A stretch of DNA of 64,000 bases. Origin: Candidatus Brocadiia bacterium. GTDB lineage: Bacteria > Planctomycetota > Brocadiia > SM23-32. Both the position numbers and the translations under genes were made by a program. Below the pieces are notes generated by a model that searched no databases, was not told the DNA's origin, and saw only the letters and a program-made list of their open reading frames with translations. The stretch is taken from positions 48,165-112,164 of the forward strand of contig JBKHIT010000007.1 of NCBI GenBank assembly GCA_046538485.1, read 5' to 3'. Shown in pieces: positions 32,354 through 52,347 of the stretch. Each line of letters begins with the position of its first letter. Within the stretch, counting starts at the first letter, position 1.

Positions 32354-32912
32354 TCCAGAGCCCTCGTTGCTCACGATGAGCTTGTTGTTCCAGTTTAATG
32401 AATGTTTTACGGTAAGGATGGTTCCATTTTCGCGTGGCGGTCCCAAGACCTTCGCGGATAAGTTTACGATTAACGAAAATTTCGTGTTTGCCACGTGTTA
32501 CGAAGATATAGGCGAGCGTCCGTCCGTAGTCGTCCCGACGCTGAGGTCCGAATTCGAGTCGAACAGTCCTTCCTGAGGTCCAATCTTGCAGTTTTTTGGT
32601 AGCTTCTTTAGCCCAATATTTTACGTGTTTCTGCTGCATAGCAAGCCAGGCTGCCTGACGGTTAAGTTTGTTTTTGTTATGGCTGTCGAGAGTATCAACT
32701 CCGATGAGACGTACTTTTTTCGTTCCATCGAGCTGAAGGGTGTCGCCATCATACACGAACGTGACTTTTCCAGTAGGACCATTTTTTACGGCCTGCCGCT
32801 TTTGTCCCGACTGAAAAATCCAGAGGAGGCCCATCCCGCCGAAAATACAGAAGAATACAAGTAGAGTTCGTGCATTGATTGAACGATCTTTTTTCCCGTT
32901 TGATGAATTCAT
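32331..32912 (-). CDS. Thermonuclease (SNase) family protein with N-terminal membrane anchor
   Basis: VYDGDT, VRLIGVD, DDYGRTLAY, QRGLW. Confidence 0.88.
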   Translation of the reverse strand: MNSSNGKKDRSINARTLLVFFCIFGGMGLLWIFQSGQKRQAVKNGPTGKVTFVYDGDTLQLDGTKKVRLIGVDTLDSHNKNKLNRQAAWLAMQQKHVKYWAKEATKKLQDWTSGRTVRLEFGPQRRDDYGRTLAYIFVTRGKHEIFVNRKLIREGLGTATRKWNHPYRKTFIKLEQQAHREQRGLWNDAGQKR

Positions 32913-33062
32913 GGTGAGGGCAAATCTCCAGCAGGAGCAAAGCGTGTCTGTCCGGTCGAACGATAGCTCAGTCCATTATATCTGTCAAGCTGAGATGTTG
33001 CTCTTCAGTTCCGGATGGGTTAACATAAGGAAGGTTGAGTGTTTCACAGCGAGGATCTTGTC

Positions 33063-35099
33063 ATGAACGGTGGAAATCTAAACGCTTTTTTTTGTGGGTT
33101 GGTTTGTCTTTTTATCGGTATTGCCAGCCCGGGGTGCATCCAGCTTCCCATAAAAGAAGAAGCTGAAGAGGCCGAGGGGCCGCCCCCAATGACTCAGGCT
33201 CAGCTCATCAGCTACGCTCAGGCTGAACAGCTCCTCGTCTCGGAAGAGCCTGCCACACGAGAAAAGGCCGCCATTAAGCTATTGGGGATGGGGAGACCAG
33301 AAGCAACCGAAGCGGTACTGGAACGCATGCAGAATGCGGAAGATCCACAGGCCCGTGTGGATATGATCAGGGCAGCGGCTTTCTGCCGAGCACACCGATG
33401 TTTTGAGGCGATATTGGAATCGATTAAGGACCCCAGTGACAAGGTCAAAAGGGCAGCGGCTGACGCTCTCGGCCATTTTGGCAAATCGGAAGAAATTGAA
33501 GCCATGAAAAAAATCGCTGGGGATTCCTCTACTTCCCCGCGTGTGCGCGAGTTGCTTTACCGGTCCCTGGGAGAAGGAATATTTTTGCAGGCAACACCTG
33601 TTCTTCTCCAGGGCCTGGATGATTCTCATCCTCAAGCTGCTGAAGCGGCGCTCTGGGCTTTGCGGCATATGTCGGGGCGTAATCTATCCGGGGAACCCGC
33701 GCGTTGGGAAAAGTGGTGGGCCGCGAATCGTGCGAGAACGCGAGAAGAGTTACTGGAGGAAAGGATCTGGAAACTTGAATCGAACTTAAAAATAAGCCAG
33801 AAAAAGCGCGACGAGCTTCAGGACGAACTGGATGAGCTTTCGAGCCTAATGAGGTATTCCGCCCGGAGCAACCCCGGCAGGTTGGTCAAGGCACTTCTGA
33901 GCGAACACCGCAGAATTCGTGAACATGCCGCTTACAAACTTTCGAGCCTGGATCGTGACATGTTGAAATCGGTTTCACTGAGTAGTAACGAGACGTACGA
34001 GACGCTCCGGCAAGCACTCGTGCGCAGTAGCCCGGCTATCCGGGAGAATATCGTTGAAGTTGTTGTCAAATTGGAGGGCAATCACCGCAATACGTTGCTG
34101 TTAGAGGCCCTCAATGACCACGATCCGGACGTTTTGGTAACAGCGATTGGTGCTGTTAACCAGCAGATGGGAAAGCCAGCCGTCGAGCGACTCAAGGAAC
34201 TGCTTCAACACACAAAACCGAGTGTGCGGGAAAGCGCAGCCAATGCGCTCGGGAAAGTGGGTTCGGACGATGCTGTTCAATCCTTGCTCGGTGTGCTTAA
34301 TGATAAAGCCGAGAATGTGCGATGGTTCGGTGTGGAAAGTCTGCGGAAACTTGATGCCGTCCGGGCCGTACCACGTCTGTGCGAAGTGCTTGAGAATGAC
34401 GAAAGTGCCCGGGTGCGTGAAATTACGGCAAATGCGTTGGGAGACATTGGACAGCCTGCAGCGGTGCCCGTGTTGCGTGAGGCTCTTGCTGATAAAAACG
34501 AAAGGGTGCGAGAAGCAGCGGTGTCAGCCTTGAAATCATTGGCAGAAAGCAATTTCGAACGGGCACTTATCATTGCCGAGATACTTAAAAAGAAAGATCG
34601 CGGCGAGGCGGCCATCGAAGTCCTCCGTAAAGGGATACAGGAATTTGGCGATAATGAAGAACTGGTCGAACAAACGCGTGAAGCACGCCTGGAGCTGGCG
34701 GAAATTCTGGAAAGACAGGAGGACTTTGTCGGGGCGGCAACCGTTTACCGAGAAATTGTAGCGCGTGGACATGACGATATGAAAATCCGAAGTGAGTTCA
34801 TTGACTGCTGGTTCAAGGCTGGGGAACCCCAACGTATTCTTGAGCTGATGAAGAAATGGCTCGATTCGGACGAAGGGGGGAAGCTGGAGGCGCTCGTTGA
34901 TCTCGGGCTTGAAACCGTGAAAAAGCTACGGAAGGCGGACGAGCAGGAACTCGCGACTCAAGTTCTTGAAGTGCTCACAGCTGCAGCAACAAGAGCGGGA
35001 GAGGAAAAACTCCTGGAGCGTTTGAAAAAAGCGGAAATCAAAAAGCCCGAAAAAGAGGGAGCGGACAACTCTGAAACGGAGAAAGAAAAGGAAGAGTAA
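33063..35099 (+). CDS. HEAT-repeat lipoprotein
   Basis: Lipobox-like ASPGC; repeated VRExAAxALG units; WEKWW motif; TPR-like tail. Confidence 0.75.
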   Translation: MNGGNLNAFFCGLVCLFIGIASPGCIQLPIKEEAEEAEGPPPMTQAQLISYAQAEQLLVSEEPATREKAAIKLLGMGRPEATEAVLERMQNAEDPQARVDMIRAAAFCRAHRCFEAILESIKDPSDKVKRAAADALGHFGKSEEIEAMKKIAGDSSTSPRVRELLYRSLGEGIFLQATPVLLQGLDDSHPQAAEAALWALRHMSGRNLSGEPARWEKWWAANRARTREELLEERIWKLESNLKISQKKRDELQDELDELSSLMRYSARSNPGRLVKALLSEHRRIREHAAYKLSSLDRDMLKSVSLSSNETYETLRQALVRSSPAIRENIVEVVVKLEGNHRNTLLLEALNDHDPDVLVTAIGAVNQQMGKPAVERLKELLQHTKPSVRESAANALGKVGSDDAVQSLLGVLNDKAENVRWFGVESLRKLDAVRAVPRLCEVLENDESARVREITANALGDIGQPAAVPVLREALADKNERVREAAVSALKSLAESNFERALIIAEILKKKDRGEAAIEVLRKGIQEFGDNEELVEQTREARLELAEILERQEDFVGAATVYREIVARGHDDMKIRSEFIDCWFKAGEPQRILELMKKWLDSDEGGKLEALVDLGLETVKKLRKADEQELATQVLEVLTAAATRAGEEKLLERLKKAEIKKPEKEGADNSETEKEKEE

Positions 35100-35162: not shown

Positions 35163-35582
35163 TCAGTGAATCAATTTTCCTGTCGTGCCGAGGTTAAGTT
35201 TGCCGTATTTAACCCCGCGCATACTGATGAGCTTTTCTCCGAAAGCGCGCACTTCTTTGCCCGGGCCTTTTAAAACGATAATTTCAAGACAATTATGGTG
35301 GTCAATATGGATGTGCAGCGATGAAATGACCTCTCCTACGTGCTCGTGTTGTGCGTCGAGTAAGCGGGTATCGACGGACATTTCATGGTGATCGTAGACC
35401 AGGAATAAGATGCCAAAATTTTCCGTTTCGCTGGCTGCCCACTCCTCTTCTACAAGTTCTTCCCGGATCAGGTCGCGGATAGCCTCCGAGCGGTTTTCAT
35501 ACCCCTTGTCTCGAATCAACCTGTCAAAGTTGTCGAGCAGGTCCATGTTGAGTGACACTCCAAAACGCACCGTTTCTGACAT
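35163..35582 (-). CDS. nikR: Nickel-responsive regulator NikR
   Basis: RFGVSL...NRSEAIRDLIR ribbon-helix-helix; YDHH; HIHIDHHNCLE. Confidence 0.95.
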   Translation of the reverse strand: MSETVRFGVSLNMDLLDNFDRLIRDKGYENRSEAIRDLIREELVEEEWAASETENFGILFLVYDHHEMSVDTRLLDAQHEHVGEVISSLHIHIDHHNCLEIIVLKGPGKEVRAFGEKLISMRGVKYGKLNLGTTGKLIH

Positions 35583-36659: not shown

Positions 36660-38129
36660 TTAATTTGCCGGGATTTCCAATTTTTTGGGTTCAGGCGCCG
36701 GAAACGGTAGCTGTTTGATGATCTTTTTGACTGAGAAACGTTGCGGGAACTGGAGGTGACCCTTTTGCCATGAACGGAGTTTCTTGATGAACCCGGAGTT
36801 GGTTTGGTGCCATGCGGCGACAACTCGCTTGCCCCAGTATCGCAGCATCGCGGTGCCGAACCGGAAAGTTGAGAGTGATCTGAGGGAGGACCGGACCGAA
36901 TAGAACCGCCGGTTGGCGCGCATCGTGCCGAGTTGAAGTTCGAGGGGGGTCATTCTCGCGGGTTCGAAAACGACATGATGGCCGTCGTAAAGGGACCAGT
37001 CGCGGGTGATGATCCGATCTTCCTCCACCAATCGGTTGAACAACTGGGTTCCCGGAACCGGTGTGAGGATCAGGAACTGAACCGTATCGATTTGATTGTG
37101 GCTGGCAAATCCGATTGTTCTTTCAAAAGTTCCCTTGTCGTCGTGCTCCGCCCCGAACATGAACATGCCGTGGACCGGAATTCCGTAATCGTGGAACCCC
37201 TGGATGCTCTGTTTTATGTCGTTGACGCTCTGGTGTTTGTTGTAGTCGTCGAGGACTTTTTGGTTGACGGATTCGTAGCCGACATAGACACGGCTGCAGT
37301 TTGTCCGCTTGAGCAGGTCCATCATTTCTTCATCGCGCCATGTATCGGCGCGAACCTGCGCATACCAGCGTTTCGGGAGCCGGTTTTCGGTCAGGAGCCT
37401 GTCGAGCAGTTCTTTTGTTCGGCTCGGCACGGCCGTGAAATTGTCGTCGCACAAGAATACGTTTTTGCCTTTCCAGGATTTTGCTTCTTCCACCACCCGA
37501 TCGATGCTGGCCATCCGATATCGGCGTCCAAACATCCCGGAGACACAACAGAAAGTGCAATTATGCGGACACCCCCGGGTTGTGAGGGCAGGAGTAATTT
37601 TCATCTGGTCGTGGTCTGCGATCAACTCGAGGTTGGGCATCGGGATCTCGTCGAGTTCGCATTTGAGGGGCTGGCGTTCGTTATGCACGATATCTTCGCC
37701 GTCCCGGTAAACGAGATTGGGGATGGAGGAGAGATCTCTGTTGTTTCCCAGGGCATCGACGAAGGCGGGGAAAGATTCTTCGGCTTCGCCCCTGAGGACG
37801 TAGTCTCCGAACTCAAGCCCTTCTTCCGGCATGAAGTTCGCATGGGGTCCCCCGAAAATGACGGGGATATCTCTCAAACCGAGAAGCCGGGCCATTGCGT
37901 ATCCGCGGGGCGCGGTGGAGGAGGTTATGGAGATCCCCACCAGGTCGCTTTTAAATACGTCCCAGGCCCGCTGGGGGTTGAATTCGGTCAGGTCTTCGAC
38001 GTAGATCGTGACGTCATGGCCTTGCTGTTCGAGAATTGTGCCCAGGATTGGGAGCCCCAGCCGGGGGATGGCCAATCCGCTGTAAACGTGGTAGTCAGGG
38101 GAGCGAGGTTCAATCAGTGATATCTTCAT
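36660..38129 (-). CDS. B12-binding domain radical SAM protein
   Basis: LGLPILGTIL, FGGPHA, RGEAE; TRGCPHNCTFC (CxxxCxxC); DDNF; GYES. Confidence 0.9.
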   Translation of the reverse strand: MKISLIEPRSPDYHVYSGLAIPRLGLPILGTILEQQGHDVTIYVEDLTEFNPQRAWDVFKSDLVGISITSSTAPRGYAMARLLGLRDIPVIFGGPHANFMPEEGLEFGDYVLRGEAEESFPAFVDALGNNRDLSSIPNLVYRDGEDIVHNERQPLKCELDEIPMPNLELIADHDQMKITPALTTRGCPHNCTFCCVSGMFGRRYRMASIDRVVEEAKSWKGKNVFLCDDNFTAVPSRTKELLDRLLTENRLPKRWYAQVRADTWRDEEMMDLLKRTNCSRVYVGYESVNQKVLDDYNKHQSVNDIKQSIQGFHDYGIPVHGMFMFGAEHDDKGTFERTIGFASHNQIDTVQFLILTPVPGTQLFNRLVEEDRIITRDWSLYDGHHVVFEPARMTPLELQLGTMRANRRFYSVRSSLRSLSTFRFGTAMLRYWGKRVVAAWHQTNSGFIKKLRSWQKGHLQFPQRFSVKKIIKQLPFPAPEPKKLEIPAN

Positions 38130-38293: not shown

Positions 38294-38370
38294 TGGTAGC
38301 GGGGGTGGGACTCGAACCCACGGCCTGAGGCTTATGAATCCTCCGCTCTAGCCAGCTGAGCTACCCCGCC
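38294..38370 (-). tRNA. tRNA-Met(CAT), probably elongator
   Basis: GGCGGGGTAGCTCAGCTGGCTAGAGCGGAGGATTCATAAGCCTCAGGCCGTGGGTTCGAGTCCCACCCCCGCTACCA: cloverleaf, CAT anticodon, encoded CCA; lacks the initiator GGG/CCC anticodon stem. Confidence 0.93.
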
Positions 38371-38393
38371 ACCGGTAAAACAACTACATATAT

Positions 38394-38421
38394 ATTATAA
38401 ATCTTCCCCCCCTTTTGTCAA
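38394..38421 (-). promoter_or_regulatory. Sigma-70 promoter of the tRNA
   Basis: TTGACA-16nt-TATAAT on the minus strand. Confidence 0.75.
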
Positions 38422-38438
38422 GAAGCTGCTGTTCTGAT

Positions 38439-38467
38439 TTGACAGCGGGACGACCACCTTCTATAGT
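38439..38467 (+). promoter_or_regulatory. Sigma-70 promoter of the hydrogenase-metVF operon
   Basis: TTGACA-17nt-TATAGT, back-to-back with the tRNA promoter. Confidence 0.75.
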
Positions 38468-38593
38468 CTTATTCTCTGACTCTGTCCGGGAGTGGGCGTC
38501 CGCCCCTCCATGGTTCGAGTGACTCCCATCTTGACGCCTTGATGGGCGTTGGAAATTGAAGACTCTGTGCGGCAGGAAATGAGGGAGAAAAAA

Positions 38594-39472
38594 ATGCCGG
38601 TAAAAGAGATACCTGTGATCTGGTTGCAGGGAGGCGGATGCTCGGGTTGCACTGTGTCGCTTGCCAATTCCAAGTTCCCCTCTTTGCGTAACATTTTGAT
38701 CGATCAGCTCCTCCCCGGAGCGCACTTGAACCTTCTTTATCATCCCACTCTTATGGCTGGAGAAGGTGAGCAGGCGTTCTCGGTTCTGGAGGAACCCCCC
38801 GACGGGTATGTGCTGGCCGTGGAGGGGGCGATCCCCGAAAACGAGCGTTTCTGCACCATTGGTGAAAAGAACGGCGAAGAGGCGACCATGCTTGCCAAAT
38901 TCGTGGAACTTGCCCGGGACGCCTCGCTCGTCCTGGCCGTCGGGACATGTTCATCATTCGGCGGAATACCGAGCGGGCATCCAAACCCGGGACAGTATCG
39001 GCCTGCGCATGAAATCATGCAGAAACATGACATCGAGATACCTGTGGTGAACGTGCCCGGTTGCCCGCCTCATCCGGATTGGATAACAACAACTCTGAGC
39101 GAATTCATGCTCGCCTCCGGCACCGAGGGCGTCGCCGTCGACAAGTGGCACCGTCCGCTGACAATCTACGGACAGCTCATCCACGAGAATTGTCCACGAC
39201 GCGCTTATTTTGATGAGGGCAAGTTTGCTGAAACACCCGGAGACCCCGAGTGCCTGTATGAACTCGGATGTAAGGGACCAATTACGTATGCCGATTGCCC
39301 CGTGCGGGAATGGAACGGGGGCACCAACTGGTGCGTCGGTGCAGGCGGGCCGTGTAATGGCTGCACGCAACCCGAATATATCGACGAGGTCACTCCGCTG
39401 TATCGCAAACTTCCCGAGGACGCACTGCCGAAGATTGGACAAGTTAACTCACCAGGAGATGATAATGAGTAA
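38594..39472 (+). CDS. [NiFe]-hydrogenase small subunit (group 1a-like, no Tat signal)
   Basis: WLQGGGCSGC, VEGAIP, GTCSSFGG, PGCPPHP, HENCPRR, CLYELGCKGP, NWCVGAGGPCNGC; ATG 38594 after GAGGGAG. Confidence 0.93.
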   Translation: MPVKEIPVIWLQGGGCSGCTVSLANSKFPSLRNILIDQLLPGAHLNLLYHPTLMAGEGEQAFSVLEEPPDGYVLAVEGAIPENERFCTIGEKNGEEATMLAKFVELARDASLVLAVGTCSSFGGIPSGHPNPGQYRPAHEIMQKHDIEIPVVNVPGCPPHPDWITTTLSEFMLASGTEGVAVDKWHRPLTIYGQLIHENCPRRAYFDEGKFAETPGDPECLYELGCKGPITYADCPVREWNGGTNWCVGAGGPCNGCTQPEYIDEVTPLYRKLPEDALPKIGQVNSPGDDNE

Positions 39473-41006
39473 GAGCACAATTACCATCGACCCTGTTACC
39501 CGGATTGAAGGACACCTCGGGGTGCATGTGGAACAGGAAGACGGTACGGTGACCGAGGCCCGCTGTTCGGGAACTCTCTTCCGTGGTCTGGAAAGCATCA
39601 TGGGAGGACGCGACCCTCGTGATGCCCCTATACTGACACAAAGAATCTGCGGGGTTTGTCCTCAGGCGCACGCCACGGCTTCGGCTCGAGCGCTCGATGA
39701 AGCGTATGGTGTGGCCGATCAGGTGCCCGCCAATGGGCGCCTGCTGCGTGATATCCTGCTCGGAGCCAATTTCCTGCAATCCCACGTGCTCCATTTTTAC
39801 CATCTCGCCGCTCTCGATTACGTCGATGTGACGGCGGTGCAGAAATATTCCGGAAATGATTCCGACCTGCAGGCCGTCAAAAATTTTCTTTCGCGAGGAA
39901 ACGCTCAGCCGTTTGTGCCGCGCTATGAAGGCGATTATCGGCTTGAGCCGGATGAGAATGTGGCGGCGACAAAACATTACGTTGAAGCACTCGATGTGCG
40001 AAGAAATGCCCACGAGTTGCTGGCCTTGTTCGGCGGCAAAATGCCCCATCAATGCACAGTCAATGTCGGCGGGGTCGGGACAGAAGTCACCTCCGACAAA
40101 GTGATGCGGGCGCTTTCGTATGTCGAGGATATCCTCGAGTTTGTGAACACCGCCTATCTGCCCGATATTCTGCTGGCCGCTGAACGATACCCCGATTACC
40201 TCAAGATCGGGGCCGGCTGTTCGCGTTTTCTGTCGTATGGCGGTCTGGATTCAACGGGCGATCCAATGTTCAGCAGCGGAATCCTGACACCCGATAACGA
40301 ATTTGTTGCGTTCGATCGAGATAAGATCCGAGAGGAAATTTCCAGCTCGTATTACGCGGGTGAATCGGAGTCGAATACGCCATTCGATAGCACGAGTGTT
40401 CCCGACGCGGAAAAAGACGGAGCTTATTCCTGGCTGAAATCCCCGCGCTACGATGGCAAGCCCTGCGAGGTTGGCCCCCTGGCCCGGATGATGATCGGCT
40501 ATGCAGCCGGAAATAAGGCCGTCAAACCGGCTGTCGAAGGCTTGCTGGAAAAAACCGGATTGCAGCCCGTCCAGCTGAATTCAACTCTTGGTCGTCACGC
40601 CGCCCGCGCTCTGGAGACCAAACTGATGGCGGAAGCGATGAGAGAGTGGATTATGGCCCTTGAACCGGGCGCTTCCTGCACCCTCGGCCTGGATGTTCCG
40701 GAGTCGGGCCGGGGCGCCGGGCTCACGGAAGCCCCACGGGGGGCGCTCAGTCATTGGGCCACGATCGAAGACGGCGAACTGGCGAACTACCAGTGCGTCG
40801 TCCCCACGACCTGGAACGGGTCCCCGCGAGATAATCAGAATGTCCCCGGGCCCATCGAGCAGGCCATTGAAAATGAAACCATCAAAGACCTGGACAATCC
40901 CTTCGAAGTGGTGCGGATTATCCGATCCTTTGACCCCTGTCTCGCATGTGCTGTTCATCTGCAGCGCCCGAAAGGTGAACTGCGGCTGGAGCTGCCCATA
41001 AAGTGA
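39465..41006 (+). CDS. [NiFe]-hydrogenase large subunit
   Basis: IDPVTRIEGH, L1 QRICGVCPQAH, L2 RSFDPCLACAVH plus a cleavable tail; AGGAGA RBS. Confidence 0.96.
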   Translation: MSKSTITIDPVTRIEGHLGVHVEQEDGTVTEARCSGTLFRGLESIMGGRDPRDAPILTQRICGVCPQAHATASARALDEAYGVADQVPANGRLLRDILLGANFLQSHVLHFYHLAALDYVDVTAVQKYSGNDSDLQAVKNFLSRGNAQPFVPRYEGDYRLEPDENVAATKHYVEALDVRRNAHELLALFGGKMPHQCTVNVGGVGTEVTSDKVMRALSYVEDILEFVNTAYLPDILLAAERYPDYLKIGAGCSRFLSYGGLDSTGDPMFSSGILTPDNEFVAFDRDKIREEISSSYYAGESESNTPFDSTSVPDAEKDGAYSWLKSPRYDGKPCEVGPLARMMIGYAAGNKAVKPAVEGLLEKTGLQPVQLNSTLGRHAARALETKLMAEAMREWIMALEPGASCTLGLDVPESGRGAGLTEAPRGALSHWATIEDGELANYQCVVPTTWNGSPRDNQNVPGPIEQAIENETIKDLDNPFEVVRIIRSFDPCLACAVHLQRPKGELRLELPIK

Positions 41007-41018
41007 GGAGTTCTTGCG

Positions 41019-41525
41019 ATGCACAAGAAGTCCCAAAAATCCCAGATCGCAATCATCGGGTTGGGAAACCTGTTGATGTCCGACGAAGGGATCGGGATCC
41101 ACGCGATCCGGACCCTTCAGGACGGCTGTCAGGACGAGGGTGTTGTCTGGATTGATGGCGGCACCGACCCGTGGGCGGCCCTCTGGGAGGCGCGAGATTG
41201 TCAGCACGTGATCATAATCGATGCCGTGGAAGGCAATGCGTTGCCCGGAACGCTCTACAGATGCGACATCGAAGAAGTGGAATCCGAAACCGGCGGGTTG
41301 TCCCTTCACGACACGAGTCTCAGCCAGATCGTCGCTTTTGAAGGGTCAGTGGGAAATGCGTTCGCCTCGGTCACGGTGCTGGGTATCGAACCGGACCGAT
41401 TGGATTTTGGTATTGGCCTTTCCCAGACCTGCAGTAAGAAACTCTCCGAATTGATGCGGGTTGTCCGCTGTGAGATCGATAGATTGAAAAATGACAATAA
41501 AACCCAAGGAGTGCGGCCATGCTAG
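41019..41525 (+). CDS. Hydrogenase maturation protease (HyaD/HybD family)
   Basis: GLGNLLMSDEGIG, IDGGT, IIDAV, SLHD. Confidence 0.93.
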   Translation: MHKKSQKSQIAIIGLGNLLMSDEGIGIHAIRTLQDGCQDEGVVWIDGGTDPWAALWEARDCQHVIIIDAVEGNALPGTLYRCDIEEVESETGGLSLHDTSLSQIVAFEGSVGNAFASVTVLGIEPDRLDFGIGLSQTCSKKLSELMRVVRCEIDRLKNDNKTQGVRPC

Positions 41526-42214
41526 TAACCGAACTCAAGCCGCAGGAAGAGGTTCTGGAAGAACTCGAAGGCGATTCCAGCGTCTTTCTTCTGGGCTGTG
41601 ACGGGTGCGCGAGCGCCTGCGAAACCGGAGGGGCGGAAAATCTTCCGACCCTCGTAGAAATGCTCGAGGATGCCGGAGTAAAAGTAACCGGCCAGACCTC
41701 GCTCGATTATCTGTGCAATAAATCGCTCATACGGTCGCACCTGCGACCCTACGAGGACGACATCGTGAAATCGGACTGCGTCCTTGTTGCAACGTGCGGG
41801 GTCGGAGTTCAGTGTGTCGCCGACAGCGTTCTCAAGCGCACCAGACCCGCCTGCAATACCGTCAATATGGGCGGATCGGGTGGCACTCAGATGTCAACCG
41901 AGCGTTGCGCCGAATGTGGCGATTGCCTGCTGGATCAGACGGGCGGAATCTGCCCGATCACCGGATGCTCCAAAAGTATGGTGAATGGCCCCTGCGGCGG
42001 CACAACGAGCGACGGAAAATGCGAAGTCGATAGCAAAAGGGATTGTGGTTGGTACAGGATCTATGAGCGCTTGAAAGACTTGAAAGCACTCGATCAAATG
42101 AAAGAAATTGCCCCACCGAAAAAATACGGATTGTTCCTGCCGTCATACGAACGAATGACCAGCGAATTCTGGGCGGTCCAGGCTCAGTCAGAGCAAGGAG
42201 GGGACGATGAGTAA
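41519..42214 (+). CDS. metV: Methylene-THF reductase small Fe-S/Zn subunit MetV
   Basis: GCDGCASAC, TCGVG, CAECGDC...GGICPITGCSKSMVNGPCGG...KCEV...DCGW. Confidence 0.88.
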   Translation: MLVTELKPQEEVLEELEGDSSVFLLGCDGCASACETGGAENLPTLVEMLEDAGVKVTGQTSLDYLCNKSLIRSHLRPYEDDIVKSDCVLVATCGVGVQCVADSVLKRTRPACNTVNMGGSGGTQMSTERCAECGDCLLDQTGGICPITGCSKSMVNGPCGGTTSDGKCEVDSKRDCGWYRIYERLKDLKALDQMKEIAPPKKYGLFLPSYERMTSEFWAVQAQSEQGGDDE

Positions 42215-43085
42215 TTTGTCAGAAGCGCTGGCAACGCAAGATTTTGTCGTAACCGGAGAAATCGGCCCCCCGAAGGGCGTAAACGTCGAAGAATGTCTCG
42301 AAGATGCCGAACATCTCCGAGGCAAAGTGGCCGCTATCAATGTCACCGATATCCAGAGCGCTGTGATGCGCGTGGGATCGATGGCGACCTGCAAACTCCT
42401 GATCGAGCGCGACCTTGAACCGATCCTGCAGATGGTCTGCCGGGACCGGAATCGTCTTGCGCTCCAGAGCGACCTGCTGAGCGCACACATCCTCGGCATT
42501 GAGAACGTCCTCTGCCTGACCGGCGACCACAATGTGCTCGGGGATCATCCCGATTCCAAACCGGTGTTCGATCTCGAAGCGGTCGGGTTGCTTGAGGCTG
42601 CCACGGGACTTATGGAGGGAGAGGATATCGCGGGCGAGGAACTCGACGGAGCCCCGGAACTGTTCCTCGGTGCCGTTGTCACCCCCGGAGCCGATCCGGT
42701 CGAACCCCAGATCATGCGGATGGAAAAAAAGATCGAGGCAGGGGCCAGGTTCTTCCAGACCCAGGCAATCTACGATACGGATCAGTTCGCCAATTTCATG
42801 AAACAGGTCGAAGGATTCGGGGTCCCCGTCCTCGGCGGGATTGTCCTGCTGAAATCGGCCGGAATGGCGCGCTTCATGAACGCGAACGTCGCCGGCGTCA
42901 ACGTGCCCGATCACCTGATCGAGCACATGAACAAAGATGATGGGAAAAGCAATAGCGAAAAAGCCGTGGATATCGCCGTTGAAACCATCAACGGACTCAA
43001 AGATATCTGTGATGGTGTCCACATCATGCCGCTCGGCTGGGACCACCTGGTGCCGGAGATCATCGAACGGTCCGGGCTGGGGTGA
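42207..43085 (+). CDS. metF: Methylenetetrahydrofolate reductase MetF (MetV-associated type)
   Basis: TGEIGPPKG, NVTD, CRDRNRLALQSDLL, LTGDH, KKIEAGARFFQTQ, GVHIM. Confidence 0.93.
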   Translation: MSNLSEALATQDFVVTGEIGPPKGVNVEECLEDAEHLRGKVAAINVTDIQSAVMRVGSMATCKLLIERDLEPILQMVCRDRNRLALQSDLLSAHILGIENVLCLTGDHNVLGDHPDSKPVFDLEAVGLLEAATGLMEGEDIAGEELDGAPELFLGAVVTPGADPVEPQIMRMEKKIEAGARFFQTQAIYDTDQFANFMKQVEGFGVPVLGGIVLLKSAGMARFMNANVAGVNVPDHLIEHMNKDDGKSNSEKAVDIAVETINGLKDICDGVHIMPLGWDHLVPEIIERSGLG

Positions 43086-43228: not shown

Positions 43229-46200
43229 TCAGCGTTCGCTGAGACGGGCGGCGGCGAAGGTGGCAAGGTCCCCGCGGGTGGCTTCCTGGAGGTCTTGCAG
43301 GATTTTTGCCGAAGTCTCGGCCGCAACGCTGCCCAGCAGGTTGTAAACCGTCTGAATCTCCCGAGTGAAACGCGCCCCTTTTAACGCGCTCACCGTTTCC
43401 GCTGGCATCTCTTCCAGTAATCTCTCGATATCATGGCGCGTGAGCTCCTGAAGGGACGCGAACCGTCTGGAAAGGTGTCGCCAGTTTCTCCGGACCGCCG
43501 CCGCCTTCGCTCCCTCCAGCTTGTTCTGGCCGATCATGTAGGACCGGGTGCGGGCGCAGTAATCCTGGTACTGACGGACCATCGTCCACTCGCGCACAAA
43601 CTGTTCGGCGTAAGTTTCCGAATCGTGACGGGAAAGATAGGCCAGCCACGCCAGACGAGCAAAAATCTTCTCGGCGCCAAGACACGGCGAGGTCTCAAGC
43701 ATGGCCGTGTCGGGTCCGAGACGCCGCGCATAAGCCGCGCGGGTCCGGGCTTCTTCCTTATTCCATTTCTTGACTTTCTCACGACCTTCCTCAACAAGAT
43801 CGGCTTTGCGATACAGGGCGATGGCCAGGGAGAGGTCGCGACGCCGTTCGCGCGCGTCGGCTTTGGTTTCCAGGCGGAGTGACGGTGGATTCGACAGGAT
43901 TTTTCGGAAAGATACATCCCCCGCAAGAGCCAGCAGGAGGTAGGCGTTTCCGTGGAGCCGACTCGACGCTGTGCTCAGAGCTTTCTGGGCGAGTTTGGCC
44001 GCGTTGCCGGGCCGTTCCCGCTGCAGAGACGAAACCATACGCAGGCGGAGGCCGAGAGGCAGATTTGTGACGGTTGCCAGTTGTGTGGCGAGGGCACTGG
44101 CGATCTTCGGTCCTTTTGCTTCGAGAGCTTTGTTGATCACCCCGATTCGTTTTTTGAGTTTTTCGGGTTCCAGTTCCGTCCCCGCCCCGGAATCCTTCTC
44201 GCCTGGCAATCCCAATCCAGCTTCTCCGGTTTCCTCATCGAGCCCGCCGAGATCATCGAGTTCTGAATCGAGGGACGTGCTTCCCAGTTTTTCGAGCAGA
44301 TACTCCGTGTCGGCTACTTTCTGCGGGGCCTCAACCTCTCCGACCCCGGGTGCCGTCCAGACCATGGCGCTTTTGAGGAGTTTCGGCCAGTCTTGCCAGT
44401 CGAAGAAAGCCGTTGTGCCGTCGCTGGATTTGCCCCGGTGGTCGACCAGCAGGCACGCGACCCGTCCTTTCCCGACTTCCCACCCGACCAGAACGGGTCG
44501 ATTGCCGCTTTTCAGGAATACTTTGACATCCGGTCTTAGCACGACCTGATTCCGCACCCAGTAGACGGGACGCTGGCTGAAATCAAGATCCACTTTAAGT
44601 TCCGAGAAATCCGGACCCGGCTCGAATGGGCGCGGTTCTTCGGGATAGGTCGTGTCCGTCATGCCGGTGCAGCGGAACGGTAACAATTCTCGTTCGAGCA
44701 CTGTGTGCATGTAGCCCCCTTTGCCGAAGGCGTATTCCCCGCCGGTGAAGAGGACACCGCCGCCCGATTTGACGTATTCCGCCAGTGCGTAGCTGTTTTT
44801 GACCCCGATCGCGCAGTGGGGGATCCCGGTGAACAGAGTCAGGTCGAAATCGTTGTAAGCGTGAGCTGGGACGTTATTTGCGAGTCTCATGCCGGGTCTC
44901 TGGCGGACTGTTCCATACACCCACGCGTTGTGGATGTTGAATCGATTCAGCCTGGCAAACGCGAGGGGCACCCGCAGGCGATAATCCATCGCACCCCGGC
45001 CGTAGAAAATGTCGAAACGGCCGTTACGCACCGGGGTTAAATCACCGAAATCAAGATCTTTGTCTTTCAGTTTTAGATCCGCCGGGATCGCGGCGCCGTG
45101 CCACCATTTTTTGGCAAGTTTTTCCGGGGACCTTCGCTGGCCGAGAAGGGTTTCCTTGCGTTCTTCGCCGGAAAGTTTCCTCATGGCGGCTCGTTTTTCC
45201 GCACGTTTCTTTGCCCATTCCGGGGCCAGACGCCGGAATTGTTTGTTGACCTCTTCCATGCTGGCATCGGGATCGAGGATGATCTGTTCTTTCCGCTTGG
45301 TGTCGTCGATATCCTCTCGCTTTTTGCCGAGAGTCGCGGGAGGTCCAAAACGCGATGCCAGGGCTCCGACGTCGCCTTGAACGACGAGGTCAATTACAGC
45401 CACTTTCCAGGTTCGGACCGCCGGGACATCAAACCGGCCGTCGGCAAGGGGCAGCGCATTAACATCGAGCGTACGGGGATGGATAAGGTTGACGCCCGTT
45501 GCCTCCACACCTTCGGGCAGACTCAGCTCGAAGGCGACTGGATCGGTTCCCGGGGACATGTCGAATTCCGGCGGCGCGTCACTATCGCGTCCCGGCCGGG
45601 TTTCTTTTTGCGGGATGTTGAGCAGGTTGACGACGAGCTGTCGCCGACCGTTCTGAAGTGGTGTTTCGTAGACAAACGGTTTCCACCAGAGCCGCGTTTT
45701 ATTTTGCGGTTTGAGCACTTTTTCGGGTGTGACGAGTCGCCGGAGATTTTCGTCGAAAGTATACTGGCTGTAGCGGGTGCAGTAGCGTCGGATTTCGCGG
45801 TTCATTGCTTCGTTGTAGGGACGGCAACCGGCGGCGGCCCAGAGTGCGCTTTCGATGATTCTGTCCCGTCGGGATTTGGCGTAACTAATTCCCAGGTAGT
45901 AGCCCCCGCGTTCCCGGCAGAGATCGCCGTCCGTCTGGAGATTCTTTGCAATCTGGGCGAACGTCCAGCCGCCCGATGCATTGCCGATAGATTCGTTCAT
46001 CAACAGTCCGCCCCCCCGGCAGAGTTCGTCCAGCTCGAAGTCCTCAATGGCCCACTTGTGATCCTTGTTCTTCTCAATGAGCAGATAGTTGTAACCGTGG
46101 CGGAAGTCGGGGTATTTCTGCGCGACGATATCTTTAAAGTACCGCACCAGAGTTTGAGTTTGACATGCTGCGAACGGACGGTATTTCCCGCTCCGCCCGC

Positions 46201-47764
46201 ACTGAGCCCAGCCCGCCCCCCGCGGATGCCCGTCCCAGCGGATGGCGTCCCACCCGAACATCTCAATAGAACGCACACATTCCTCGGCGGCGATTCGGAC
46301 CATGTGGGGGGTGGCATCCGGGTTGATCGGCATGAAACTTGACCACCAGTTCCGGAACGGGTTCCCCGGCACGCGCGGAAGTTTGCTGTAGATGCAGAAA
46401 TCCCTGTCACGGCGCCGATCCAGATGCAGTACGTTGACCCCGTTCCACATCCCGACAGGGTAGTGGTATTGGGAGCGGTGGTCTTCTGGATAATCGTAAG
46501 CCGTCTTCCAGCCTTTGGATCCGGACATGACGAACTTGCCGTAGGTCGAGACCGCGAATCCCTGTTCGTGGGCGAGGCGGATCTGGCGCTGAAGGGTCTT
46601 TTTGTGCATTCGATAATTGGTCTGTCCCGATGACCAGAACTCGGTGGCGGGACTCATCTCGACCATATCGTCTTCGGCCCAGGCGAAGTACTCCGTGGCA
46701 TTGAAATACTGATCGCGCGCTTCCCTCAGCTCTTTGCGAATTGTCTCTTCGTCCAGGACAACATCACGGGTCGCCAGCCCGCCACCGAAGATTGCAACCC
46801 TCTGGAAGTTGGCCGCGATGTTAAAATATTCCGCCGCTTCCGAACGGTCTTTGCCGTCACTGGAGACGTATTCAGCCACCAGTGCGTAGCCGAGTTCTTT
46901 GTCGGGGAGCCTGATTTCAAAATCGACTGTCTGAGGTTGCTTGCTGAGCGTAACCGGGAGGCTTTTGGCCTTGCGACGTTCCCGGACATTGTGCTCGAGG
47001 TAAATGTTGAGCGTTCCGCTGCCTCCACGACCGCCAACGTCCGAGACCACGGCCGAGCCTTTAAGTGTTGCGCCCGGCAGGTAGCGTATTCTGTCGATAT
47101 CGACCTTGTCCACGCACCCGGTGCGCGATAGTCGCCTGTACTCCACTTTATCCACCAGATAGTAGACCGATTGTTTTGGGGTGAGGGTATGTTCAAGATC
47201 GAGGTCCATGTCCGGTTCGGCGTCAGCGGCTCCGCCGAGCATATCTTCGGTGGCGGCTTTGATGCCGGCTCCGCCTTTCTTGATGTCGGCTTTGGCTCTC
47301 GCATTTCCGACGGTCTCGGCGTCGGCGGTGGCGTGGATGGCGAATGTGAGCGGCGCCGATCGGGAATGGATAAACTGGCACGTTCGTGTCTCCGGCCGAT
47401 GGACGCGCGCGAAGTGACACCCTTCGTATTGTGCGATCTCCTGTTTTTTCTGCATGATCCGGAGGTGGGAATGAAACGCAATGGCATTTCCCACGTGGGA
47501 AGGCTGGAGCGTCAGGCGTATTTCGTAGAGTCCCGCCGGCCGGGTTTCGGGCGTTTGGACGGACAGTGGACTGGTTTTCTTTTTCGGGAGGGCGACGGCT
47601 GCCGCGGCTTTTTGATCCAGTGCCGGCACGCGGGCATCAACGATTCCTTCCCATTGGTCGGCCGGGATCGTCTGCCATTTGGGTTCCGCGCCTTTGACGT
47701 TGCGCGTCAGCCACAGCGTCAGGCCCAGGATGAGCAGCGAAATTATGGCATGATTTTTCTGCAC
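43229..47764 (-). CDS. Giant secreted protein: putative glycoside hydrolase (GH66-like Ig + TIM barrel) with C-terminal class I GATase-like (DUF1355-like) domain
   Basis: Signal peptide; DRIRYLPG Ig start; FGWDAIRWDGH and LLMNE putative catalytic motifs; YVKSGGGVLFTGGEYAFGKGGY...LLP and GKGRV are DUF1355-like. Family assignment tentative. Confidence 0.5.
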   Translation of the reverse strand: MQKNHAIISLLILGLTLWLTRNVKGAEPKWQTIPADQWEGIVDARVPALDQKAAAAVALPKKKTSPLSVQTPETRPAGLYEIRLTLQPSHVGNAIAFHSHLRIMQKKQEIAQYEGCHFARVHRPETRTCQFIHSRSAPLTFAIHATADAETVGNARAKADIKKGGAGIKAATEDMLGGAADAEPDMDLDLEHTLTPKQSVYYLVDKVEYRRLSRTGCVDKVDIDRIRYLPGATLKGSAVVSDVGGRGGSGTLNIYLEHNVRERRKAKSLPVTLSKQPQTVDFEIRLPDKELGYALVAEYVSSDGKDRSEAAEYFNIAANFQRVAIFGGGLATRDVVLDEETIRKELREARDQYFNATEYFAWAEDDMVEMSPATEFWSSGQTNYRMHKKTLQRQIRLAHEQGFAVSTYGKFVMSGSKGWKTAYDYPEDHRSQYHYPVGMWNGVNVLHLDRRRDRDFCIYSKLPRVPGNPFRNWWSSFMPINPDATPHMVRIAAEECVRSIEMFGWDAIRWDGHPRGAGWAQCGRSGKYRPFAACQTQTLVRYFKDIVAQKYPDFRHGYNYLLIEKNKDHKWAIEDFELDELCRGGGLLMNESIGNASGGWTFAQIAKNLQTDGDLCRERGGYYLGISYAKSRRDRIIESALWAAAGCRPYNEAMNREIRRYCTRYSQYTFDENLRRLVTPEKVLKPQNKTRLWWKPFVYETPLQNGRRQLVVNLLNIPQKETRPGRDSDAPPEFDMSPGTDPVAFELSLPEGVEATGVNLIHPRTLDVNALPLADGRFDVPAVRTWKVAVIDLVVQGDVGALASRFGPPATLGKKREDIDDTKRKEQIILDPDASMEEVNKQFRRLAPEWAKKRAEKRAAMRKLSGEERKETLLGQRRSPEKLAKKWWHGAAIPADLKLKDKDLDFGDLTPVRNGRFDIFYGRGAMDYRLRVPLAFARLNRFNIHNAWVYGTVRQRPGMRLANNVPAHAYNDFDLTLFTGIPHCAIGVKNSYALAEYVKSGGGVLFTGGEYAFGKGGYMHTVLERELLPFRCTGMTDTTYPEEPRPFEPGPDFSELKVDLDFSQRPVYWVRNQVVLRPDVKVFLKSGNRPVLVGWEVGKGRVACLLVDHRGKSSDGTTAFFDWQDWPKLLKSAMVWTAPGVGEVEAPQKVADTEYLLEKLGSTSLDSELDDLGGLDEETGEAGLGLPGEKDSGAGTELEPEKLKKRIGVINKALEAKGPKIASALATQLATVTNLPLGLRLRMVSSLQRERPGNAAKLAQKALSTASSRLHGNAYLLLALAGDVSFRKILSNPPSLRLETKADARERRRDLSLAIALYRKADLVEEGREKVKKWNKEEARTRAAYARRLGPDTAMLETSPCLGAEKIFARLAWLAYLSRHDSETYAEQFVREWTMVRQYQDYCARTRSYMIGQNKLEGAKAAAVRRNWRHLSRRFASLQELTRHDIERLLEEMPAETVSALKGARFTREIQTVYNLLGSVAAETSAKILQDLQEATRGDLATFAAARLSER

Positions 47765-48296: not shown

Positions 48297-51200
48297 TCAC
48301 GTTCCAGGCAACAGCTTTTGGGCGCTCCTGTAACGGTTTTTCAAATCTTTCAGCACTTTTTCAGGACTTTCTTCGAACAGCGGAACAACGTGGTATGTTT
48401 TGCCATCTATTTTTGCTTCAGGCATTTTGCCTTTGACTTTTTGCCCGTTGACGGTTACCTCTGGGGCGCCGTTGGGGCTGTGGATGAGCGCGGCGGTCGC
48501 TTTGTGGTCGGGAAATTGGCCGCGCGGATGCTGCATGAAAGAGGGGGCATCGATGATAACGACATTGTCCCCGGGGCTCATCACCAGACGTCGCAGCGCC
48601 AGCCGTCCGTCGGTGGCCAGCACCATTGTATCAGCTACACTGGCTTCCAGGGCTGTCGGACCCGGCCAGAGGCGCTGGAACTCAAAATAACCGCTCTGTG
48701 GCTCGGTCAGTAGATAGTGTTCCTGGGTGTTTTCATACCGCATGACAGCTTTTTCATCGAGACGCCGCGTCCGTCCGTCCGTGAGTTTTTCTCGCGCAGT
48801 CTTGATGCGATTTTCGATGTCCGGCGCCGTCTTGCCATCCGCATTGAGAGGTATAATCCACCCGCTCTGGCGCGCAACCGTAATCTTTTGCAACGTCTCA
48901 ACGCTGCGCTCATTAAGCGTCACTGACGGTTTTTGCTTGAACCCCTGGGCAAAAAGCGCCGTGGCCATGTCGTCGGACTCCTGTCCGGGTTTGACCGCAT
49001 AGCGAATCGCCACGGTGGATTCTGCGGGGCGGACGGTGGCTGACATCATGCTCACCCGTCCGTCAGCCTCGATCCGAATCTCCCCGGGAGTTTCGAGCGC
49101 GAAATGTGTCGGATCGGGCAGCGGGTTCCACGCTACGAACGTGCCGCTTGTCGGTTCGGTCTGAAGCATGGCCATCCGACCCGGCTCCGTACGAAGCACC
49201 GCGCCATTCTTGCGGAGTTCTGGCGCGCGACCCTGGACTGTGAGCGTCGAATCGCGTTCGATGCCGTCCTCGAGGTAAGGCCATTTCCCGTTCACGCGGC
49301 GGTACGGGAAATGCTGCTTGGGGGAGGTGCGTTTTCCGGTATCGGCTCCCCGTGGTCTGAACCCCATCTCCATCCGATCTTCCCCGCTCCGATAATCCAG
49401 GTGGAGCGTTTCGGCGTTGGCGTCCCAGCGCTGCTCAAGTCTGGCGGAACGGATGTGTTTCTGGAACGCTTTAAAACCGCCGTATTCCTCGACGTCGCCC
49501 AGTTCGACGACGAATCCGCCGTAGGCCAGATCCACCGGATCCCAGTCGTTGCGGTTCTGGTTGAAAGCCTGATCGCTTCGATAGTTGTAATTTTCGATCA
49601 GGAGGGCTTCCCGTGCGTAGGCGCCGGTCTGGGTGCGCACGGGTTCTCCGCCTTTCTTGATGATGATTTCCGCGTTACGGCCGAGATCAGTGGCTTTCAG
49701 CGGGATGACCCCGACATAGCTTACGCCGTCATGGAGGGTGATTCGAGTGTCGGTGGGGTAGCGAGCGGGGAGTTTTTCGACCGGTTTGCCATTCGCGTAC
49801 AGTTTCCAGGTCGGTTCGTTTTGGATGTTGAAGAGGCAGGCGCTGGTCTGAAGACTTTTGATCTTCTGTTTCTGGGGTTTGTAGTGGGAGCTTTTAAGGT
49901 TCGCGTGGGGGCTTGAAGCGATCAGAAGTTTGCCTTTGTGCTGCAGAACCCCGAGTCCACCGCCCATTTGACCGAGCGTGCCCCCTTTATGAGTATCGAT
50001 GAAATTGGTGCGGTTGTATCCGTAACGGACCATCAGCATTCTGAGGTGCTCGGCTGAACTCGCGCTTTTTTCGGTGCGTTTCCACATGCCCATCAGATTG
50101 ATGGTGGGGGAACTGTTCAGGTCGAAACTGGCCACTCCGTAGTGATGGCCCATGTGCGATTTTTTCCATTTGGGGTAATCGATGAACGCTCCCCACTGTT
50201 TCCAGGTCGACGTGATGGAGTAGGGCAGTGGTTTTTGATCAACGACGTTTGCCATCCATTCGGGCCCCCAGGGCTGATTGATGGCCTGGAGGGCGACGCG
50301 GCGTGGCGGCAGATCGTGGCCCGTGATCGGGAAGACGTTCACTTCTTTCTTGCGCATCCGGGCCTTTTGTTTGCCCGCCCTGTCCAGATCGGTCAATGCT
50401 CCCTCACGGGAAAGCGTATGGACGATGTGCTGAACACCTTCTTGGATTTGCAGCGCGTAGAAGGGAGTCGTGCGCAGGGCGGTGCTGATGAAGCGCCGCA
50501 GGCCCGGGTGGTAGCAATTGACCAGTTCGTCCACGTTTTTGGCCATAATGCTGCGTCCCATCATCCGGTCGAACCGGGTCGGTCCGAGATCCGCGAACGC
50601 TTTCTGTCCATGGAGAGTGTGCGAGAGATAGTAATGGTCGATGGATTCCTGGGTTGAACCTTCGAACCAGGCCCAGAGGCGGAGCGGGAAATGTTCGAGG
50701 CCGTACCGTCCGTCCCGGATAGCTCGATCACAACCGCGGAACGCGCCGCCGAGCAGTGCTCCTGTGGCGGCGGTGTGGTTGAAATTCATTGTGCTGATGA
50801 TCCGGGTGTAGCCAGCACGGTAGAAGCTGTAGTTCCCCCGCCAGTCGCCCGTCCGATCGTAATAATCCGTTCCCATGTTCCGATATTTGGTCCAGATCTG
50901 GTGGTATTGGGGATGGACCAGTTCGTGAGTCTCGCGGTGGCACATCATCCATGATTTCCAGTAAAGATGCCAGTGATCCACCACGTAGGGGGGCAGGGCG
51001 TCGCGGTATTTGTAGACGATTGAGAGCTGGTCGGCGGCTTTGAAACCCTCCCAGCGTCTGGGTTGCGTGGCAAGCATGCCGTCGATCCAGTCTTTGTAGC
51101 CTTTGAGCGTCTCAGGTAGAGCATTCGCCCGTCCGCCGAGCCGGTAGAGTTCCCGGACGCGTTTCCACTGCCAGTCGGGCATGTCTTCGGGACGCTGGAA

Positions 51201-52283: not shown

Positions 52284-52347
52284 GTTACTGAATTCACTTT
52301 CGCAAAAGGACACCGCTTTTATTTGCTTGCGCAAAACAAAGCGTTTT

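Follow-up and report, generated by a model that had tools for sequence, protein, structure and literature searches.

A stretch of 64,000 nucleotides from a Candidatus Brocadiia bacterium (Planctomycetota; contig JBKHIT010000007.1, positions 48,165 to 112,164), referred to here as the window, carries at 38439-43085 a five-gene operon in which a [NiFe] hydrogenase and its maturation protease are encoded together with MetV and MetF, the Fe-S subunit and the catalytic subunit of a MetVF-type methylene-tetrahydrofolate (methylene-THF) reductase (MTHFR). We read this operon as probably encoding a soluble cytoplasmic H2:methylene-THF oxidoreductase that takes up H2 directly and does not bifurcate electrons. 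We observed the gene content, the close packing of the operon, the loss of the twin-arginine translocation (Tat) signal and of the membrane anchor from the hydrogenase, its metal ligands, the recurrence of the module in other genomes and a predicted interface between the hydrogenase small subunit and MetV.

The operon and the enzymes it encodes

The operon lies on the + strand of the window and consists of the following genes.

38594-39472, + strand: [NiFe]-hydrogenase small subunit, 292 aa; ATG behind a GGGAG ribosome site; PF01058 and PF14720
39465-41006, + strand: [NiFe]-hydrogenase large subunit, 513 aa; PF00374 at 507 bits; NF033181
41019-41525, + strand: hydrogenase maturation endopeptidase, 168 aa; PF01750; TIGR00072 at 114 bits (cut-off 47)
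41519-42214, + strand: MetV, Fe-S subunit of the MetVF reductase, 231 aa; PF12225 at 110 bits
42207-43085, + strand: MetF, methylene-tetrahydrofolate reductase catalytic subunit, 292 aa; PF02219 at 135 bits (cut-off 24)

An earlier reading of this DNA from its letters alone (the sequence-only reading) had delineated the same five open reading frames (ORFs), and our analysis confirmed their strand, coordinates, junctions and family assignments. The first two genes overlap by 8 nt, the second and third are separated by 12 nt, and the last two junctions are overlaps of 7 nt and 8 nt; the search for terminator-like sites gave none on the + strand within the operon. There are five genes only. As had also been noted, no cytochrome b, diaphorase, HdrA, HdrB, HdrC, MvhD or RnfC2 gene lies among them, and neither does any other cytochrome partner or a carrier gene. 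The longest frame of the small subunit opens at a TTG at 38549, and relatives begin at the point of the ATG at 38594.

The large subunit scored 642.7 bits against NF033181, above the cut-off of 600, and 492.9 bits against the NiFeSe-specific model NF045518, below the cut-off of 780. Its Ni-Fe ligands, held in the motifs RICGVC (C62, C65) and DPCLAC (C492, C495), were invariant across 21 aligned large-subunit relatives. A 15-residue extension follows His498, and this is the usual substrate of an adjacent HycI/HybD-type protease such as the one encoded next. Among solved structures, the large subunit matched periplasmic [NiFeSe] and [NiFe] enzymes best (5jsu_B at 399 bits, and also 4kl8_L and 1cc1_L).

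The small subunit begins with MPVKEIPVIWLQ. Its best solved relative was 1cc1_S (222 bits), with the alignment starting from residue 5 of the mature chain, and it aligned to the NiFeSe small-subunit profile NF045520 only from position 39 onward. These alignment starts indicate that the protein begins where the processed periplasmic form begins. An RRxFLK motif was absent from the small subunit and also from the 15 extra residues of the frame from TTG 38549, and the 39 residues past the last cluster cysteine form a short hydrophilic tail with no membrane anchor. The sequence-only reading had likewise described a small subunit lacking both Tat signal and anchor, and on this basis the hydrogenase should stay in the cytoplasm with the folate enzymes. 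The ligands of three Fe-S clusters are conserved (C16, C19, C119 and C157; H197, C200, C220 and C226, which bind the distal cluster; C235, C254 and C257), a four-cysteine medial site among them, and C247 is also present in most aligned rows.

By sequence, the hydrogenase is most like the periplasmic group 1a/Hys enzymes, and the best matches of both subunits are those of Desulfomicrobium baculatum (1CC1, 4KL8) and Desulfovibrio vulgaris (5JSU, 2WPN). With group 1 it shares the Ni-Fe ligands, the curated-family score, a three-cluster small subunit with the four-cysteine medial site, and a protease-processed C-terminal extension together with the protease gene. It differs in having no Tat signal, and hence no expected periplasmic location, and no membrane anchor or cytochrome partner gene, in using cysteine rather than selenocysteine, and in its predicted partner, which is a cytoplasmic folate enzyme.

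MetV contains 11 cysteines (C27, C30, C66, C130, C133, C136, C145, C150, C159, C168 and C176) that were invariant in 26 hydrogenase-linked copies, a pattern in keeping with the two [4Fe-4S] clusters that the available text of PMC8760232 gives as measured for MetVF of Clostridium ljungdahlii. Such cysteines are putative ligands of Fe-S clusters and zinc. The predicted structure of MetV has a mean predicted local distance difference test score (pLDDT) of 84.5 and a predicted template-modelling score (pTM) of 0.81, with an alpha/beta domain over residues 1-115. In the model, C27, C30, C66 and C93 are at or just past C-terminal strand ends and form a plausible candidate cluster site. No solved relative of MetV was matched by sequence at E <= 1, and a Foldseek search of the model against the PDB returned nothing at E <= 0.001, only generic alpha/beta folds. 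The linked MetF was the sole PF02219 match in the source assembly, which comprises 5.19 Mb in 143 contigs and is 88% complete with 4% contamination.

Another MetV-like gene (PF12225, 228 aa) was seen in the source genome on contig C54 at 47112-47750 (L124:9113-9796, + strand). Its product is 38% identical to the operon MetV, and no MetF lies beside it. The gene is found behind genes for a second RACo, a 2x[4Fe-4S] ferredoxin and a thioredoxin/glutaredoxin fusion, and its clade in the MetV tree also contains second copies from Dehalococcoidia loci.

Recurrence of the hydrogenase-MetVF linkage

We followed the linkage across the best 80 of at least 593 large-subunit relatives, taken from an alignment-based scan with one genome per species. 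The five operon proteins were located in these 80 loci by tblastn, and the small-subunit N-termini were read. The nearest large-subunit homologues were labelled Planctomycetota. Small subunits without an export signal occurred in 41 of the 80 loci, and MetV and/or MetF was found downstream in 37 of these 41; the other four (L028, L029, L045 and L072) end no more than 201 nt past the large-subunit gene. One more MetVF-linked locus, L073, gave no small-subunit match and brought the linked total to 38/80. Signal-bearing small subunits occurred in 38 loci, 36 recognized by the Tat pattern and two being RK variants (L076, L084) judged by eye, and MetVF was found in 0/38, with more than 2.5 kb of downstream sequence in 32 of them and 1.0-1.5 kb in the other six. 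A match to the Tat pattern in L016 lies upstream of the start codon and was treated as a false positive. MetVF linkage tracks the loss of the Tat signal exactly. A hydrophobic C-terminal anchor was present in many of the signal-bearing small subunits and in none of the Tat-less ones. In L027, L031, L073 and L078, the metV-metF pair is placed between the large-subunit and protease genes.

Submitters filed the linked loci under 12 phylum-level labels: Planctomycetota, Chloroflexota, Bipolaricaulota, Fraserbacteria, Hebobacteria, Aerophobetes, Thermotogae, Desulfobacteraceae, Deltaproteobacteria, Nitrospira, Spirochaetota and Actinomycetota. When the large subunits were placed in a quick maximum-likelihood tree, every linked row fell within one 52-row group (Shimodaira-Hasegawa-like approximate likelihood ratio test, SH-aLRT, 90). 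This group also contains nine signal-bearing loci, so a single origin is neither shown nor excluded. In the MetV tree, the label "hydrogenase-adjacent" takes 3 changes, compared with a mean of 23.3 in shuffles. Unexpected cross-phylum groupings are common to both trees, which argues that the module has been inherited and transferred as a unit.

Closer relatives were surveyed in 41 genomes of the same class, namely the source genome (G000) and 40 relatives. The hydrogenase lies next to MetV in 15 of them (G000, G002, G003, G004, G006, G011, G014, G016, G017, G018, G021, G022, G030, G032 and G035), with the G014 contig beginning inside the protease gene. The linkage, which the sequence-only reading had described from a single genome, is therefore not unique, since 14 further class genomes add to the related loci described above. 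AcsB was found in 15/15 module-bearing genomes and in 17/26 of the others in the class. In seven of the 15 (G000, G002, G003, G004, G011, G018 and G032), the linked MetF was the sole PF02219 match, and three of these seven genomes are 91-95% complete with contamination of 4% or less. The nearest MetV, 80% identical to the operon copy, is that of G006 (L126:1750-8453), where the order is a HypE-like gene, small subunit, large subunit, MetV and a convergent GGDEF/EAL response-regulator gene.

In some related loci, the module is set among genes of the Wood-Ljungdahl pathway. L086 reads formate-THF ligase (FTHFS), FolD, MetF, MetV', small subunit, large subunit, MetV and MetF. L057 reads CooC, CooC, small subunit, large subunit, protease, MetV, an unassigned frame, MetF, DUF3786, NuoE-like and NuoF-like, and the unassigned frame between MetV and MetF is a weaker MetV match by tblastn. 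Larger clusters with the Tat-less hydrogenase were seen in L014, L012, L011 and L079, from Anaerolineae and Fraserbacteria. In L014 (503-15399), the order is an HdrA-like giant protein (1490 aa), MetV', small subunit, large subunit, a cyclic-nucleotide (cNMP)-binding histidine kinase, MetF', two response regulators, MetV, MetF and an HdrB/C-like protein. This layout resembles the hdrABC-mvhD-metVF cluster with phoBR of marine Chloroflexi described in the available text of PMC5736913. Upstream of the small subunit, L012 has FTHFS and MetV' on the opposite strand; the scan of this locus stopped short of its far downstream end.

Two further class genomes hold related gene sets. In G029 (L125:6183-10442, - strand), a GltD/NfnB-like flavoprotein fused to an MvhD (FlpD) domain (696 aa) is followed by MetV, MetF and a HycI-type protease, and no hydrogenase subunit genes were seen in the ~4 kb scanned upstream of metV. 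From this gene order, it looks as if the electron-input module was swapped at the same position and an orphan protease was left. In G013 (L119), matches to MetV, MetF and the protease were found.

Predicted docking, electron path and competing explanations

Co-folding of the small subunit with MetV gave a median interface score (interaction prediction score from aligned errors, ipSAE) of 0.71 (runs 0.68, 0.77 and 0.71), compared with 0.00 for the best of three controls. At least 89% of the contacts were common to the runs, and the partner pLDDT was at least 84. On the small-subunit side, the interface comprises residues 184-185, 195, H197, E198, 206-209, 229-230, 259-261, 273 and the tail 275-283. 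On the MetV side, it comprises 63-64, 67-79, 82-83, 102-106 and 122-127, and it adjoins the invariant C66. MetV is predicted to dock at the small-subunit face that carries the distal-cluster histidine H197. Because MetV has no solved relative by sequence or fold, it is improbable that the model simply reproduced a known complex structure. The sequence-only reading had suggested that the hydrogenase feeds electrons directly into the Fe-S centres of MetV. The recurrent linkage, the Tat loss and a co-fold that passes its controls with MetV at the distal cluster lend support to this suggestion, as far as sequence comparison and modelling reach.

We infer from these observations a physical complex with a defined electron path, direction and physiological role. 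The Ni-Fe site in the large subunit would split H2, and the small subunit would carry the electrons from its proximal to its medial and then to its distal Fe-S cluster. MetV, bound to the face with the distal cluster, which in periplasmic relatives is the site of contact with the cytochrome, would take these electrons into its own Fe-S clusters and pass them to the MetF flavin, where methylene-THF would be reduced to methyl-THF. The enzyme would work in the uptake direction with neither electron bifurcation nor ion pumping, and the methyl groups would be delivered to the Wood-Ljungdahl pathway and to methionine synthase. Textbook potentials are -414 mV for H2 and -200 mV for the methylene-/methyl-THF couple. 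From these values, the reaction of H2 with methylene-THF yields -41 kJ/mol at standard state and is exergonic down to about 1e-7 bar H2. The step could run at H2 pressures too low for H2 to reduce ferredoxin or NAD+. The -200 mV figure is also quoted in the available text of PMC9586279.

The rest of the source genome bears on the role of the enzyme. It encodes a bacterial-type Wood-Ljungdahl cluster of CooC, CooS, an Fe-S protein, AcsB, AcsC and RACo, which includes a pterin-binding frame, and it also encodes FTHFS; the sequence-only reading had pointed to acs and fhs genes as informative, and AcsB, AcsC and FTHFS are among those found. A MetH-type methionine synthase is encoded, and MetE was not found in the source genome. 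With MetH present and the linked MetF the sole MTHFR found, this MetF must, within the limit of genome completeness, serve both the methyl branch and methionine synthesis. The supply of methyl-THF for methionine synthesis, one of the roles raised by the sequence-only reading, is thus retained, but with AcsB, CooS, AcsC, RACo and FTHFS present, the methyl branch of the Wood-Ljungdahl pathway is the likelier main role.

Several observations weigh against a direct H2:methylene-THF oxidoreductase. Dissipating ~41 kJ/mol unconserved would be costly for a Wood-Ljungdahl organism. Neither protein shows higher conservation at the interface than elsewhere (0.60 vs 0.69 in the small subunit and 0.52 vs 0.64 in MetV). 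The co-fold reports the confidence of a model that was given protein chains only, with the Fe-S clusters left out, and its calibration, in which the ipSAE mark was reached by 116/157 solved complexes and 2/215 mismatched pairs, holds only roughly here because each protein entered with its own unpaired 26-row alignment. In G006, no protease gene is adjacent and the single MetF is on another contig; since MetV stays beside the hydrogenase in that genome, MetV is the constant partner of the hydrogenase. The orphan MetV on contig C54 could give MetF another electron input. FlpD/MvhD (PF02662) was not found in the source genome, and at 88% completeness and 4% contamination both this absence and the status of the linked MetF as the only MTHFR are provisional. 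Finally, the Anaerolineae and Fraserbacteria clusters, with their HdrA-like and HdrB/C-like genes and a second MetV/MetF pair, mean that the simple wiring need not hold everywhere, and judging by these gene orders a richer wiring may operate elsewhere.

A rather unlikely alternative has co-regulated genes and no complex, with a diffusible carrier (ferredoxin, flavodoxin or a thioredoxin-like protein, for example) taking electrons from the hydrogenase and handing them to MetVF. The operon has no carrier gene, but purified MetVF from Clostridium ljungdahlii and others does use reduced ferredoxin and not NAD(P)H, according to the available text of PMC8760232. The lack of special conservation at the contact residues and the separation of MetF from the hydrogenase-MetV genes in G006 would also suit a carrier. 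Against it, the potentials imply that low-pressure H2 cannot reduce low-potential ferredoxin unaided, and a diffusible link explains poorly the all-or-none association with Tat loss, the placement of metVF between the large-subunit and protease genes in four loci, and the passing small subunit-MetV co-fold. The large free energy of the reaction would be recovered if two H2 instead reduced methylene-THF (downhill) together with ferredoxin or another low-potential acceptor (uphill), in a counterpart of MvhAGD-HdrABC that relies on the MetF flavin. Such bifurcation would answer the energetic dilemma of MetVF enzymes set out in the available text of PMC8760232, which records no MetVF shown to bifurcate, and Anaerolineae and Fraserbacteria relatives do cluster the same hydrogenase with HdrA-like and HdrB/C-like genes. 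We nevertheless consider it quite improbable here, as it needs a bifurcating flavin and the operon has no HdrA-like flavoprotein or MvhD, FlpD was not found in the genome and no gene for a second acceptor is linked. It is a long shot, by the same evidence, that the module constitutes a fifth methylene-THF reductase class, a minimal bifurcating H2:methylene-THF/ferredoxin oxidoreductase built on the MetF flavin with no HdrA. If this bifurcating reading were true, ~41 kJ/mol would be kept as reduced ferredoxin, and a wide range of uncultured Wood-Ljungdahl bacteria would no longer face the energetic dilemma of MetVF.

In principle, [NiFe] hydrogenases can run either way, and the enzyme might oxidize methyl-THF and evolve H2 in an oxidative Wood-Ljungdahl pathway, for example during syntrophic oxidation of acetate or methyl groups. 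Methyl-THF oxidation is a known thermodynamic bottleneck of the oxidative pathway (available text of PMC10689502). Nonetheless, a -200 mV couple can evolve H2 exergonically only at pressures under about 1e-7 bar H2. This pressure lies below the usual thresholds of H2 consumers. The -414/-200 mV values thus make the H2-evolving direction implausible; the nearest characterized relatives are named as periplasmic uptake-type enzymes, and the source genome has a sensor-type hydrogenase linked to a kinase and a sigma-54 regulator, in line with H2 being sensed as it becomes available. Taken together, we regard reversal as very unlikely. An H2-sensing hydrogenase that only controls metVF is hardly credible. 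Sensory hydrogenases are cytoplasmic and lack a Tat signal, as this enzyme does, but they have no C-terminal extension or protease and are linked to a histidine kinase. The present large subunit has kept its C-terminal extension and its dedicated protease, the operon has no kinase, and a separate kinase-linked pair occupies contig C10. Direct, non-bifurcating H2 uptake thus stands as the probable function of the operon.

Relation to known systems and genomic setting

The available text of PMC8760232 sorts acetogen MTHFRs into MetF alone (type I), MetVF (type II), MetVF with RnfC2 (type III) and MetVF with HdrABC and MvhD (type IV), and none of the four types as described there includes a hydrogenase. 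For type II, the same text gives the in vivo donor as not known; reduced ferredoxin works in vitro but, by the argument made there, cannot serve as donor in vivo. The present pair resembles the type II enzymes of Clostridium ljungdahlii, C. formicoaceticum, Thermoanaerobacter kivui and Eubacterium callanderi (PMC8760232) in its side-by-side metV and metF, here a PF02219 MetF and an adjoining PF12225 MetV with an 8-nt overlap, in a conserved, cysteine-rich MetV that fits two [4Fe-4S] clusters, and in a MetF without a diaphorase partner. Type II is stand-alone, without electron-input genes, whereas the pair studied here is co-operonic with a complete [NiFe] hydrogenase and protease. The physiological donor of type II is still to be settled; in the present operon, the order of the genes itself points to H2. 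A type III arrangement differs in that no rnfC2 was found in or beside the present operon, the span searched for RnfC. The type IV HdrABC-MvhD-MetVF of Moorella thermoacetica (PMC8760232, PMC5736913 and PMC7325909, in their available text) is similar in joining MetVF to an input module with hydrogenase-related parts. It differs in its input, an NADH-oxidizing flavoprotein in place of a true H2-splitting enzyme, and in possessing HdrA, HdrB, HdrC and MvhD, of which the present operon has none and, for FlpD, none was found in the genome.

The sequence-only reading did not recognize this electron-input architecture. It does fall outside the four known types, but one sentence in the available text of PMC11287216, a 2024 metagenome paper, states that HysAB adjoins MetVF in two Ca. 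Bipolaricaulia operational taxonomic units among metagenome-assembled genomes from Great Salt Lake. That hydrogenase was assigned to group 1a by HydDB, and the authors write that it may provide electrons for methylene-THF reduction. The Bipolaricaulia genes form the same module; the available text mentions no Tat loss, phylum spread, interface model or test, and the present locus belongs to Planctomycetota. In our literature search, which covered running text, the adjacency was mentioned only in PMC11287216. The available texts of PMC5736913, PMC7325909, PMC9586279 and PMC10689502 deal only with Hdr/MvhD-linked MetVF or a periplasmic group 1a enzyme, and that of PMC5736913 does not mention a hydrogenase with the marine Chloroflexi hdrABC-mvhD-metVF and phoBR cluster. 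From its gene content, we rate the module as a new, uncharacterized variant of the MetVF reductases.

Analogues exist in which a cytoplasmic hydrogenase is wired into a C1 reductase. The hydrogen-dependent CO2 reductase of acetogens is one, and it differs in having an [FeFe] hydrogenase, small Fe-S subunits as adaptor and another reductase. In MvhAGD-HdrABC of methanogens (5ODC), the wiring likewise runs through Fe-S clusters, with the differences that the hydrogenase is a group 3c [NiFe] enzyme, the adaptor is MvhD, the reductase is another one and Mvh-Hdr bifurcates.

The source genome encodes further hydrogenases. Contig C10 (L091:1445-6570) holds a second pair of small and large subunits (354 and 478 aa), with genes for a PAS histidine kinase and a sigma-54 response regulator behind it. 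By its gene order, this set has the make-up of a regulatory hydrogenase that senses H2. A membrane-bound, group-4-like hydrogenase is encoded 5 kb past it. One more hydrogenase comprises four subunits, among them an NAD(P)-binding gamma subunit, and is accompanied by a protease.

The features around the operon are as follows.

38439-38467, + strand: sigma-70-like promoter TTGACA-17-TATAGT, matching 11/12 consensus positions; consensus match only
38294-38370, - strand: tRNA-Met gene, upstream of the operon and divergent
36660-38129, - strand: B12-binding radical SAM gene, upstream of the operon
35163-35582, - strand: NikR gene, in the 1-3 kb upstream region of the operon
33039-35099, + strand: 686-aa HEAT-repeat protein, adjoining NikR
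31910-32494 and 32331-32912, - strand: DUF123 gene and SNase-like nuclease gene, overlapping, upstream of the HEAT-repeat gene
43229-47764, - strand: 1511-aa ORF, convergent, downstream of the operon; no Pfam/NCBIfam family over cut-off, with a sub-threshold GATase1-like stretch only
48297-52382, - strand: 1361-aa ORF; no Pfam/NCBIfam family over cut-off

The sequence-only reading had placed a sigma-70 promoter before the small subunit. A site is indeed there, its -35 hexamer at position 38439, but it is a consensus match only, and the scanned stretch holds 5 such sites vs 2.2 +/- 1.5 in shuffles. It lies back to back with a - strand site, TTGACA-16-TATAAT (12/12), that faces tRNA-Met while the + strand site faces the hydrogenase operon; the two share the spacer, within 38392-38467. 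Matches to a sigma-54 consensus numbered 33 in the window against 28.1 expected, with none upstream of the operon. The NikR and B12 radical SAM genes are nearby, as the sequence-only reading had reported, and an inverted-repeat search of 38371-38600 for a possible NikR operator yielded a single 9-nt pair.

Herein, our analysis bears on a long-standing open question in Wood-Ljungdahl energetics, the electron donor of MetVF. In this module, the operon itself appears to specify the donor, through a complete H2-splitting enzyme that no longer carries an export signal and is always accompanied by MetV. Many module-bearing genomes come from sediments and the subsurface, and in several of them the module holds the only MTHFR found. 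The module is a defined four-protein target for expression, assay and structure determination. If our reading is true, very low partial pressures of H2 could suffice to drive the methyl branch directly, which would change how carbon fixation and H2 thresholds are modelled in these uncultured groups.

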